Shown in pieces: positions 19,753 to 25,717 of a stretch of DNA of 28,008 bases. The notes beneath the pieces were generated by a model that was not told where the DNA came from, made no database searches, and saw only the letters and a list, made by a program, of their open reading frames with translations. How positions within the stretch are numbered: the stretch's first letter is position 1; each line of letters opens with the position of its first letter. A program made the position numbers and the translations under genes. The DNA is from Deinococcales bacterium (GTDB lineage: Bacteria > Deinococcota > Deinococci > Deinococcales > JAAFIG01), in contig JANLWR010000445.1 in the NCBI GenBank assembly GCA_031364625.1, positions 1 through 28,008 of the forward strand. Reading direction: 5' to 3'.

Positions 19753-22700
19753 ATGAAACTCGAGCGGGCAAAATCTCAAATTCTGCCTGGGGTTGTTACG
19801 CCTTCAAAAAAGCAAGCCTCCGCGAGAACCATCCCTTTGCAGGCAAAAGCCGCAACACCCATTCAATTGCAACGCGCCAAAAATAAACTCGAGCAAGACC
19901 GTAGGCAAATCCAGCGCCAAGCCGAGCAAGCCAGCATTCAGCGTACCACTCGAGTCGAAAGTCAAGAACAGGTTCAGGTTCAACGCTTGCAAGATCAAGC
20001 CGTGGCTCAAGAGCAACAAGCTCGAGTCCAAAGATTGGCTGAAACCCAAGCCAGACAGCAAAGCTTCTTCTCGGGCTTTGTGAAATCACCCGTTCAACGT
20101 CAATTCCAAGCGCAGGTCAAAAACTCGAGCGTCCAAACGGCGCAAGCTCGAGATCAGTACCAAACCGCAGTGCAACCAGAAATATTGCAACGCCTGGTTG
20201 ATAACCAAATGGGTTTGCAATTACAGCAAACTCGAGCTTCACAACCTCAAAACGATCTGAACGCTCGAGCCGAATGGTTTAACACCGAACTGCCCGTGCT
20301 AAGGGCACAACACAATCACCCAGACACCCCATTTCTGGATGGCGCAAACGTTTTCAAACCAGCCGACCAGCAGGCGTTCACGCTCGGAAAAACCTACGGC
20401 ATTCAACGGCTCTCCAGTGGTTTAACCCCCAAAGATGCCGCCAGTGCCATTTTGAACATTCAACGCAAAGCAGACCGCGATATTGCGCTGCGCGGCTTGT
20501 TGACCGGCATCAACCCGCGTCAAAGCGATTACACCAGCATTCAAAGGCTGGTGGCGCAAGGTGAAACCAAGCTCGAGCTTCAACGAACTGCCCTTTTGGA
20601 AGACCCCGCAATGCAATCCCAGGCATTGCAACTGGCAAAAGATGAGGCGCACCCGACCAGTCCAAACTCTGGGATTGCTGACAAAATCAAAACCAAACTC
20701 GGCGGCGGAAATCCGTTACCCGAAAACGTGCGCCAGCAACTCGAGGCTGGTTTAAACACCGACCTCTCGGGCGTGAGGGTTCACACCGACAGCGAAGCCG
20801 ACTTCCTGTCCAAATCGGTTCAAGCCAAAGCCTTCACGACCGGCAATGACATTTTCTTCTCGAGCGGCGCGTTTGACCCAAACACCAAATCGGGTTTTGA
20901 ATTGATCGCACACGAAACCACGCACACGCTTCAACAGGCATCGGGGCAGGTACAACCGGGTATCGACAGTGACCCCAGCCTCGAGACTGCCGCCCAAGCC
21001 AAAGGCGCAGAACTTGCATCAGGATTCAATCCGAATTTCAAATATAAAAACCTCGAGAATCAGGCGCAACCCAACTCGCCATTGATTGCCAGTCAACCGC
21101 CTGCGCACCGTGTGAAGTTGCAAGCCATGCAGCGCTCGAGTTTAAAGGTTCAACGCGAACCGCAAGCTCCAACACCAGTAAGTCCCATTCTTGATGAAAC
21201 CGCCCTGGCGACCCTGACCACGGCACTGCTGCCCGTCGTGCCACAAAAATACCAAAGCGATGCCCAAAGCAACATTCCCGTCATTCTGAGGCAATGTTTC
21301 TCGAGCCAGATCAAAAACGCCAACCAAGTCGCGTACATTCTTGCCACCGCCCAACACGAATCACGTTTTGGCACAAAAATGTACTCGAGGAGCGAATCGC
21401 TGGTCGAAGATCACAATCCACTCAAGACCGAGCACAAAAAAGTCAAAGACCCCACAACCAAAAAAACCCATGTCGAAGACATCCCCTACCGCAGCAACCA
21501 TGTCACTGGAAATCGGGTCAATGCCGACCCAAGCAACACCGACAATCTAGACACTTACTACGACGACGCTTACGGCGCAAAGCTCGGCAACGTCAAAGGC
21601 TCGAGCGACGCCGCCAATTACCGAGGTCGCGGCTTTGTGCAAATTACCGGACGAGACAATTACAAACGGCTCGGGACGCAATTGCAAAACGAAGGCTTTA
21701 CTTACACGTACGACAAGCAAACTTACGGCGGTAAAGAACAACCGATTGACCTGGTGGCGAACCCAACGCACGTCAACCTTGTGCCCGAACTTGCCGCCAA
21801 GATCATGGTCAGCGGAATGCAGAACGACAGTTTCTCGCAGGGCGGTAAGGGCTTAAGCACGTACGTCAATGATAAAACCAGCGATTTTGTCGGCGCTCGA
21901 GGCTTGGTGAACGGCACAGATCGCGCTGTGGACATTGCCAAAATTGCCGAAGATTTCGCCAAGATTTTAAATGCCAACAACGCCTGGAGCAACTTGTTTG
22001 CCGCTCCGGATTTAACAAAATCAATACCAGATCAAAGCCAACCGGCAGTCACTCCAAATCAAACCATGCAACGCTCGAGCTTGGGATTGCAACGCGAAGC
22101 AAAACCGCAAGCCGGTCAAAATGATGGGTCTGACATTTCAATAGCAATCGCAAAACAATATCGAATTATGCTGAACTCCAGTCCCAACTCCACCACATTC
22201 AGAAATTACATCTACGGTGAAGCCAAAACCAAATGGGATGCTGCCAACCAAAAAGCCAAACAACAGATGGCTACCTGGATTTCACAACCAAATCCAGCAG
22301 ATCGTTCTGAAGCGCTGTTCGCCACCGCCATGAGTATCTTCTTAGACGATCCTAAAGCCCAATCGATCTTTGTGCTCGGTCGAGTGCTTGACCCACAAAC
22401 AACAACGAGAATAAAAAATCAATACAACGCACTCCAGGGCGCAGAAAAGCAAACTGTTCTTGGATTGATGAACACTGAATTGAACAGTATTCCAGTGATT
22501 CAAATTAACCAAAAAGCAATTGCGGAAAATGAAATATTTGGTCAACTCAGTCATAAGTTTGCCGAGTTTTGCCTCTACAAAGTCATGCTTACCAAATACC
22601 CACAAACCAACACACCCGCCAAACCATCAAACCTAGCCTCTAGCGGTGCACTGTCTGGCTTAGGCGCTGTGATAGACAGCGGCGGTATCACTTTACGCAA

Positions 22701-25096: not shown

Positions 25097-25717
25097 ATGC
25101 TTGATAGATTTCAAGAAAGAAATAGCATAGTAAAAAGTGAAATGTTAGATGAAAATAAATTGGAAGATGTCAAAAAAATACTACCTGATTTTTTAATTGA
25201 TGTTTTGAGAGAATTTGGGTATTTTTTTACTAAAGATCGTTTCTTTTTTCTGCGAAAACCATCAGATTTTGATTTTCTCAATGATTCTAATGTCTTGCCA
25301 AAAAATTATAAAGTCTTTGCAAACACCTCCTTCGGTGATTTGTTTTTATGGGATAGTCAAAGATGGATGTTTTACTCCACTCAAGATTGTCAAATTTTTG
25401 ATTTTAACGACAACATTGAACTTTTTTTTGAATCTTTTATGGTCAATGATGAATTTCTTAAAAAGAATTTATACCTAAAAGAGCACCAGAAAGCAGTGAG
25501 GGAAATTGGTTTTCCTTCACCCGACGAATGTTTTGCCTTTATACCAGCCTTCGCATTGGGTGGTTCTGCCCGCACGTCTGAAATTGAAAAGGTCAAACTT
25601 CGAGAACACTTATTATTCCTTTCCCAATTAACAGGAAAACCACAGTTACCAGAATTAAGTGACTCGAGTGAAACGATCAACAATTTAATTGATGCTTACG
25701 ACCGCGAAAGCCCGTAA
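25097..25717 (+). CDS. Immunity protein, Tdi1-like (GAD-like + DUF1851)
   Basis: 'LPDFLIDVLREFG', 'TSFGDLFLW', 'DECFAFIPAFALGG', 'KVKLREHLLFLSQL'. Starts 4 bp after the toxin stop. Confidence 0.85.
   Translation: MLDRFQERNSIVKSEMLDENKLEDVKKILPDFLIDVLREFGYFFTKDRFFFLRKPSDFDFLNDSNVLPKNYKVFANTSFGDLFLWDSQRWMFYSTQDCQIFDFNDNIELFFESFMVNDEFLKKNLYLKEHQKAVREIGFPSPDECFAFIPAFALGGSARTSEIEKVKLREHLLFLSQLTGKPQLPELSDSSETINNLIDAYDRESP

Follow-up and report, generated by a model that had tools for sequence, protein, structure and literature searches.

How could a toxin of 1779 amino acids (aa) reach its target when nothing encoded nearby would deliver it? This question is raised by a contig of 28,008 nucleotides (nt) from the genome of a Deinococcales bacterium (assembly GCA_031364625.1, contig JANLWR010000445.1), which we analyzed over its whole length and refer to as the window. 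It encodes a giant protein with an N-terminal DUF4157 domain and a C-terminal nuclease tip (here P0001), immediately followed by a putative immunity protein (P0002). In agreement with the original prediction, which had been made from this sequence alone, the open reading frames (ORFs) of the window include no gene of a contractile injection system (CIS), a type VI secretion system (T6SS) or a type VII secretion system. We conclude that P0001 and P0002 are probably a polymorphic DUF4157 toxin carried as cargo by a CIS and its immunity protein, encoded remotely from the machine. Since the genome has three CIS loci on other contigs, and a giant protein encoded within one of them shares the head of P0001, a remotely encoded CIS cargo is the most likely identity of the toxin.

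The head of P0001 and the CIS loci of the genome

19753-25092, + strand: toxin gene P0001, 1779 aa, intact; N-terminus conserved from residue 1, relatives 81-86% identical
19753-20712, + strand: N-terminal region (aa 1-320), glutamine-rich (16% Q), with 11 [LIVM]QR motifs
20713-20946, + strand: DUF4157/eCIS_core domain (PVC-metallopeptidase; aa 321-398), with HETTH at 387-391

Both ORFs proved to be open, as predicted: P0001 extends without interruption over 1779 codons (19753-25092), and P0002 (25097-25717, 206 codons, also on the + strand) starts 4 nt past its stop. The predicted DUF4157 domain with its HETTH motif matches the Pfam family eCIS_core (PF13699) with an E-value of 1.4e-26 and 92.9 bits, against a cut-off of 22. 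P0001 has no signal peptide, as had also been proposed (over its first 60 residues, the hydropathy of 19-residue stretches peaks at 0.07), and it carries no recognized marker of secretion. The [LIVM]QR motifs, which total 15 in P0001, are all located before residue 782. In AlgoCIS (PMC8894135; bioRxiv 10.64898/2026.05.27.728243) the disordered N-terminal regions of the cargos of one system are alike and act as a loading signal, and by analogy with its cargos Cgo1 and Cgo2 we regard aa 1-320 of P0001 as a candidate CIS loading sequence.

The window is an entire contig, the largest of the 983 that make up a metagenome-assembled genome (MAG) of 4.96 Mb (88.8% complete, 3.5% contamination, GC content 0.51). 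A genome-wide search for loci of extracellular CIS (eCIS), which the original prediction had put forward as a check, revealed 11 DUF4157 ORFs, three sheath genes, three Baseplate_J genes, four Pvc16_N terminator genes and tube genes, and located three CIS loci on other contigs, here termed C960, C712 and C300. The statement that the toxin lies outside any secretion locus is thus correct for P0001 and for the corresponding sites of its relatives, but the genome as a whole does encode delivery machines. The order of genes in C960 is a giant DUF4157 ORF (C960 1-5409; at least 1802 aa, with the 5' end cut by the contig edge), two unassigned ORFs, a sheath gene, a tube gene, another unassigned ORF, a second tube gene, and a DUF4157 ORF of at least 1291 aa. 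C712 comprises a sheath gene and two tube genes, and C300 a BTAD regulator, a Pvc16_N gene and a sheath gene. The C960 giant is 61% identical to residues 158-454 of P0001, i.e. to the later part of the N-terminal region together with DUF4157, while the rest of it is of low complexity over a long stretch and includes, at 951-1055, a strong clustering of transmembrane (TM) helices. The shared head, taken together with the AlgoCIS loading precedent, suggests that P0001 may be loaded into the C960 CIS from its distant locus. The C960 giant also has an array of short PRVN[VT]DAPNA-like repeats at approximately aa 1140-1200. Delivery by a T6SS was considered as well and rejected, as no match to TssC/VipB was found in the genome at its 88.8% completeness.

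Analysis of 121 genomes sampled from the order identified DUF4157 in 27 and Pvc16_N in 22, and 21 of the 22 Pvc16_N-positive genomes are also DUF4157-positive. Within the genus of the source organism the two occur together in all five sampled genomes, i.e. the combination of CIS and DUF4157 proteins seen here recurs in each of them. Zhang et al. 2012 (PMC3482391) listed deinococci among the lineages with the PVC-metallopeptidase (PVC for Photorhabdus virulence cassette), and CIS particles have been imaged in Deinococcus and Calidithermus (PMC12998442, 2026). These data contradict the proposal that the lineage is not known for such weapons. One complete genome of 5.1 Mb from the same family as the source (G030) has 27 DUF4157 matches, an unusually large arsenal.

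Internal modules and linkers of P0001

21127-21159, + strand: junction motif J1, MQRSSLKVQRE (aa 459-469), found at module boundaries in relatives too
21187-22032, + strand: GH19-like lysozyme/endolysin domain (aa 479-760), from PHROG, AlphaFold2 (AF2) and Foldseek
22066-22098, + strand: junction motif J2, MQRSSLGLQRE (aa 772-782), from a motif search
22099-22647, + strand: module C (aa 783-965), helical, with a low-confidence model; present in only some relatives
22657-22842, + strand: SH3b-like domain (aa 969-1030), from the model and a fold match

Domain parsing with hidden Markov models and structure models, another check that had been proposed, upheld the predicted domains of P0001 (SH3b by its fold only), with the exception of a LysM-like module. 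The lysozyme/endolysin domain stands as a fold: it matches the endolysin family PHROG_181 at 1.1e-21, its AF2 model has a predicted local distance difference test (pLDDT) score above 90 across aa 479-760, and Foldseek relates it to the SPN1S endolysin 4ok7, the GH19 endolysin 9eoi, TseP 8xcl, and Streptomyces chitinase C, 1wvu. The Pfam GH19 profile gave no hit for aa 480-780 at E-values up to 1; strict membership in this Pfam family was therefore rejected, the fold and the PHROG match backing only a GH19-like endolysin. The domain has 2404 homologues in a representative library, and close relatives are labeled "predicted chitinase" by JGI. Residues E536, E552 and T632 are kept in at least 69 of the 72-77 homologues of the domain, and presumably correspond to the Glu/Glu/Ser-Thr catalytic set of GH19.

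The GH19-like module is flanked in P0001 by two copies of an 11-residue linker, [LIVM]QRS[SA]Lx[LIVM]QR[ED], which marks the boundaries of internal payloads across the family. This linker is a candidate recombination joint or a candidate cleavage site of the DUF4157 peptidase, and in the latter case could be the long-postulated site of DUF4157 autoprocessing. For module C, which follows J2, no family match was obtained. For the predicted SH3b domain the fold matches bacterial SH3 domains (2krs and 4krt, pLDDT ~90), while the Pfam SH3_3 profile stays below its cut-off (19.3-20.9 bits against 27), and we refer to it as SH3b-like. The predicted LysM-like module had to be dropped, since aa 1030-1110 gave no Pfam hit at E-values up to 10 and are modeled with a pLDDT of only 60-70.

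The helical domain and the pre-toxin region

23242-24072, + strand: DUF4157-linked helical domain (aa ~1164-1440), conserved and all-helical
24133-24582, + strand: pre-toxin region (aa 1461-1610), a beta-hairpin and long helices with pLDDT ~80-90; travels with the tip

The long helical region noticed in the original prediction is real and conserved. Its domain at aa ~1164-1440 contains two moderately hydrophobic helices (1315-1334 and 1379-1401) and four invariant residues (F1185, G1196, F1200 and G1367). Giant DUF4157 proteins with the same domain also occur in cyanobacteria, Chloroflexota, Verrucomicrobiota and Proteobacteria. Nearly all strong hits of its profile carry PF13699 as well; since head-only relatives scored too, this search documents that the domain and DUF4157 co-occur, and is not a clean count of the domain. 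We found no match in Pfam or PHROG and no named match in the Atlas, which returned unnamed clusters only. Comparison with solved structures gave no significant match by fold or by profile, the best profile E-value being 0.012 for a designed helical bundle. Judged by these searches, the domain looks like an unannotated family. It may act at the membrane or in translocation. No further paralogues with this domain were found in the genome. A similarity of aa 1100-1610 to tape-measure proteins was considered and rejected, as there is no PHROG hit.

The pre-toxin region is 95% identical in the relative P0004 and missing from P0003. At its beginning (aa ~1461-1500, positions 24133-24250) there is a short beta-hairpin with the pattern H-x-[VL]-W-x-E ... 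[AS]-[ST]-P, which is common to many relatives and precedes different tips; this element may be a pre-toxin junction for the swapping of tips.

The nuclease tip and its immunity protein

24583-25092, + strand: Ntox15 (Tde1-type) DNase tip (aa 1611-1779), with HEPD at 1709-1712
25097-25717, + strand: immunity gene P0002, 206 aa, with a GAD-like domain and Tdi1_C/DUF1851

The assignment of the tip to the Ntox15/Tde1 type of HxxD nucleases is confirmed by Pfam (PF15604, aa 1612-1759, E-value 1.2e-24, 87.5 bits against a cut-off of 22.5) and by solved structures, among which 8fzz_A is matched by sequence at 5e-12 and the Bacteroides Tde1 structure 8fzy is matched by the AF2 model in Foldseek at 9.4e-4. 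As a member of this family the tip presumably acts as a DNA-degrading nuclease. The gene downstream of it is, as had been proposed, of the Tdi1 type: P0002 matches T6SS_Tdi1_C with an E-value of 5e-17 (61.9 bits against 27.4) and the GAD-like family with 25.8 bits against 25, and resembles the immunity chains 8g0k_B and 8fzz_B, which were co-crystallized with Ntox15 effectors. A model of the complex between the tip and P0002 scored 0.88, as compared to 0.16 for the best control, a value that may partly reflect memory of the similar complexes already solved. Of 78 solved complexes, 51 attained the mark applied to this score, as did 2 of 108 mismatched pairs; because of these earlier structures, passing it indicates likeness more than it proves binding. 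Assignment of P0002 to the TaeI immunity proteins (NCBIfam NF041834, an equivalog family) was rejected, as the score of 62.8 bits falls far below the cut-off of 450.

The composition of the gene changes at aa 1461, where the GC content of third codon positions drops from the values of 0.43-0.68 found upstream (~0.5 is typical) to 0.33 in the pre-toxin region, 0.27 in the tip and 0.29 in P0002.

Modular evolution of the family

18935-19531, + strand: mog-like gene (MoCF_biosynth), the conserved left border of the toxin site

Metagenomic relatives of P0001 are 58-95% identical to it over aa 1-470; beyond this point they differ from one module to the next. Not all of them have the GH19-like module, which is present in P0003-P0010 and P0013 and absent from P0011, P0012 and P0014-17. 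In P0003, P0007 and P0008 a Lipase_3 domain (approximately aa 896-988) is inserted between linkers at ~780 and ~1103-1122, and in P0010 the same slot is occupied by Peptidase_M15_4. The C-terminal tips of the relatives include Ntox15, Endonuclea_NS_2 and AHH, and Zeta-toxin domains are found in other relatives. In the syntenic orthologue P0005 the N-terminal region, DUF4157, the first linker and the GH19 module retain 83-94% identity to P0001, as opposed to 38% in the tip, and its immunity protein is 31% identical to P0002, i.e. tip and immunity protein diverge together. As read from these comparisons, the family evolves by cassette swapping, with internal payloads exchanged at the conserved linkers, and with the pre-toxin region, tip and immunity gene exchanged as one unit of low GC content.

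The position of the toxin in the chromosome is conserved as well. The order SurA-like gene, LysM/M23 gene, mog, toxin, immunity gene was also found on a 285-kb ENA scaffold, and in the JGI contig Ga0672995_0000988 mog is directly followed by two tandem DUF4157 toxin-immunity cassettes, the first with an NS_2 nuclease and the second with GH19 plus a lipase. Because two cassettes stand in tandem at one mog-adjacent site, the latter has the appearance of a hot spot for toxins in this lineage. If the toxin is indeed a CIS effector, its locus provides a clean and well-delimited example of one assembled from a swappable head, payload slots, a trunk, and a cassette of tip and immunity gene, and indicates that effectors of this kind can be maintained in one fixed place of the chromosome, distant from the machine.

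Proposed mode of action and alternative explanations

According to the explanation that we favor, the glutamine-rich N-terminal region with its [LIVM]QR motifs and the DUF4157 head would direct P0001 into one of the three CIS, and after contraction the protein would be expelled at or into the envelope of the target. There the GH19-like muramidase and the SH3b domain, both recognizable in the models, would act on peptidoglycan, and the two hydrophobic helices of the helical domain may engage the membrane and help the C-terminus across. Finally, the Ntox15 HxxD nuclease, the family of which is clear, would degrade DNA, and the Tdi1/DUF1851 protein, given its family, adjacency and predicted binding, would neutralize the nuclease in the producer and its kin. 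The idea of the original prediction that digestion of peptidoglycan might let the DNase in is plausible.

Several observations weigh against a remotely encoded CIS cargo. No CIS genes were found within 10 kb of either orthologous mog site, and, according to Danov 2024, 88% of the known eCIS-associated toxins lie no more than 10 genes from the operon. As the MAG is in 983 contigs, the linkage between its contigs depends on binning. The CIS imaged in Deinococcota lie free in the cytoplasm and may act intracellularly (PMC12998442). The loading, expulsion, muramidase activity and DNase activity of P0001 are all steps that we infer. A further objection comes from another genus of the order, in which six genomes are DUF4157-positive and devoid of Pvc16_N. 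In the four of them that we examined further (G082, G096, G115 and G022), all near-complete and with intact DUF4157 toxins, sheath, tube, Baseplate_J and terminator genes went undetected in searches for which, in the case of the sheath, both Pfam and the sheath protein of the source genome were used as queries. These intact toxins indicate that the build represented by P0001 persists without a detectable CIS.

One alternative, delivery independent of CIS, is one that we regard as unlikely. It supposes that the DUF4157 head and the helical domain form a self-sufficient unit of export or translocation, or use an unrecognized route, and that the presence of CIS loci in the source genome is a coincidence of shared ancestry. 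It is supported by G082, a complete genome in one contig free of masked bases, in which no sheath, tube, Baseplate_J or Pvc16_N gene was detected. An intact toxin of 1101 aa encoded there joins DUF4157 and the helical domain to a deaminase-like tip, and its gene is succeeded by small ORFs and by a Tdi1-like gene (an orphan immunity gene). G062, a control from the same genus, gave hits with the sheath protein and Baseplate_J and has Pvc16_N. The helical domain, which is matched in three of the four CIS-less genomes, has two hydrophobic helices and nearly always accompanies DUF4157, and a mycobacterial DUF4157 protein is encoded beside ripC, in a context unrelated to CIS. On the other hand, CIS and DUF4157 co-occur in all five genomes of the genus, the head of P0001 is common to an effector encoded within a CIS locus, and P0001 is devoid of a signal peptide or known secretion marker. 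The toxins of the CIS-less genomes may have outlived a CIS that was lost, or may use another route.

Somewhat less likely again is that the toxin acts within its producer, as in the cytoplasmic CIS of Streptomyces: the CIS would fire in the cell that made it, the muramidase and the DNase would bring about regulated lysis, death and the release of extracellular DNA (eDNA), and P0002 would serve as an antitoxin until firing. Clade IId unites the cytoplasmic CIS of Deinococcota with those of Streptomyces, although the former fall outside the Streptomyces group itself (PMC12998442), and the C300 locus carries a BTAD regulator. Further parallels are provided by Tme, which has a nuclease and is tied to eDNA release (PMC11126660), and by an effector of the Sle1 type, which forms a toxin-antitoxin pair. 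The fast swapping of tips and immunity genes, the many paralogous toxins and the orphan immunity gene are hallmarks of conflict between strains rather than of housekeeping death, and SH3b and lysozyme domains can equally work from outside.

We assign a slightly lower probability still to a self-processing polytoxin, in which the DUF4157 zinc peptidase would cut the linkers and free the payloads, and the helical domain would translocate the toxin without a CIS. Such a mechanism would explain the intact copies in complete CIS-less genomes, and it would imply that the muramidase (lipase or M15 peptidase in relatives) is released apart from a trunk composed of SH3b, the helical domain and the nuclease. 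A decaying relic or assembly chimera with no present function is highly improbable: P0001 adjoins insertion sequence (IS) fragments and a possible remnant of a tip, and its contig derives from a fragmented MAG, but the frame is open over 5.3 kb, all catalytic motifs are intact, and full-length orthologues occupy the same site in independent assemblies.

Comparison with known systems

A DUF4157-headed DNase toxin with an immunity protein is a kind already catalogued. Zhang et al. 2012 (PMC3482391) described polymorphic toxins delivered by PVC-type systems that have in common an N-terminal head, the PVC-metallopeptidase, which is constant and probably autoproteolytic. Both Ntox15 (HxxD) and the lysozyme-like Tox-Glucosaminidase were listed in that work with this peptidase and with delivery by the PVC route. 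For Geller et al. 2021 (PMC8213781), the signature of eCIS toxins is DUF4157 at the N-terminus, a linker that can exceed 1000 aa and a toxin at the C-terminus; some toxin-immunity pairs were included, and the preprint of Geller et al. reported an Ntox15 DNase in an eCIS of Lysobacter. Like the toxins of these two studies (PMC3482391, PMC8213781), P0001 carries DUF4157 with HExxH in its N-terminal part, continues with a very long linker and ends in a variable toxin, and it has many paralogues in the genome. Unlike them, it is encoded far from a CIS operon, and its payloads are strung between head and trunk, separated by linkers; the dedicated immunity gene distinguishes it from many toxins of the PVC type.

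In Cgo1 and Cgo2 of Algoriphagus machipongonensis, as in P0001, an N-terminal region is followed by DUF4157 and then by a C-terminal domain, but the genes of both lie inside the cluster, their products are shorter (498 and 1228 aa), and P0001 is only a candidate cargo. Tme of Streptomyces davawensis (BN159_7576, PMC11126660), which combines DUF4157 with TM helices and a nuclease and is related to tape-measure proteins, resembles P0001, as do Sle1/Sle2 (PMC13277306), in giant size, an N-terminal DUF4157, hydrophobic helices, a C-terminal DNase and reconfigurable domains. Tme lies within a CIS cluster and is remotely similar to tape-measure proteins, whereas P0001 lies outside a cluster, has no tape-measure hit in PHROG, and possesses the lysozyme and SH3b-like domains; the C960 giant has a layout like that of Tme and is its closer analogue.

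The Tde1-Tdi1 and Bacteroides Ntox15 pairs (8fzy, 8fzz, 8g0k) share with P0001/P0002 the HxxD tip and a GAD-like/DUF1851 immunity protein, the gene of which directly follows that of the toxin. These pairs are T6SS effectors, whereas the carrier of the tip in P0001 is a DUF4157 trunk, in a genome without a TssC match. A lysozyme-like fold serves as a wall-degrading module also in TseP, a dual-function T6SS effector (8xcl), and in the endolysins 4ok7 and 9eoi; in contrast to these, the domain of P0001 is internal to a much larger, nuclease-tipped protein, shows only ~16-19% identity in the Foldseek alignments and has no Pfam GH19 match.

Three features are undescribed in the literature that we read on these toxins, namely the linker motif at the boundaries of the internal payload slots, the helical domain that accompanies DUF4157, taken as a distinct unit, and the constant position of the toxin site next to mog in this lineage. 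The linker motif, the unannotated helical domain and the natural CIS-less genomes that keep their toxins provide handles on the DUF4157 toxins.

Neighboring genes

25743-25900, + strand: short ORF after P0002, shares IDWSLLGSL with the Ntox15 tip and is without HxxD
26169-26858, + strand: IS4/IS5-type transposase fragments (DUF4096 and DDE_Tnp_1, both under the cut-off)

The remaining genes of the window encode an MFS transporter, a metallo-beta-lactamase-fold protein, an ArsR/rhodanese regulator, two P-type ATPases together with a CopZ-like protein, a type III restriction-modification pair, a SurA-like peptidyl-prolyl isomerase, a LysM/M23 peptidase and the mog product. A scan for promoters and terminators found no more sites than in shuffled sequence, and we make no claim from it. 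The short ORF downstream of P0002 is possibly the remnant of a displaced tip, a weak lead that is based on a local tblastn match to the tip with only 9 identical residues (E-value 0.003, weak).

Further downstream, an ORF of 105 aa (27116-27433) matches just the C-terminal end of the PEP-utilizers_C domain and is probably a gene fragment. The type III restriction-modification pair (9858-14554) consists of Res, with ResIII and RE_endonuc domains, and an N6_N4 methylase. This stretch has a lower GC content (0.43-0.49), strong shifts of strand composition occur at 15-17 kb, and the pair may be part of a horizontally acquired island.

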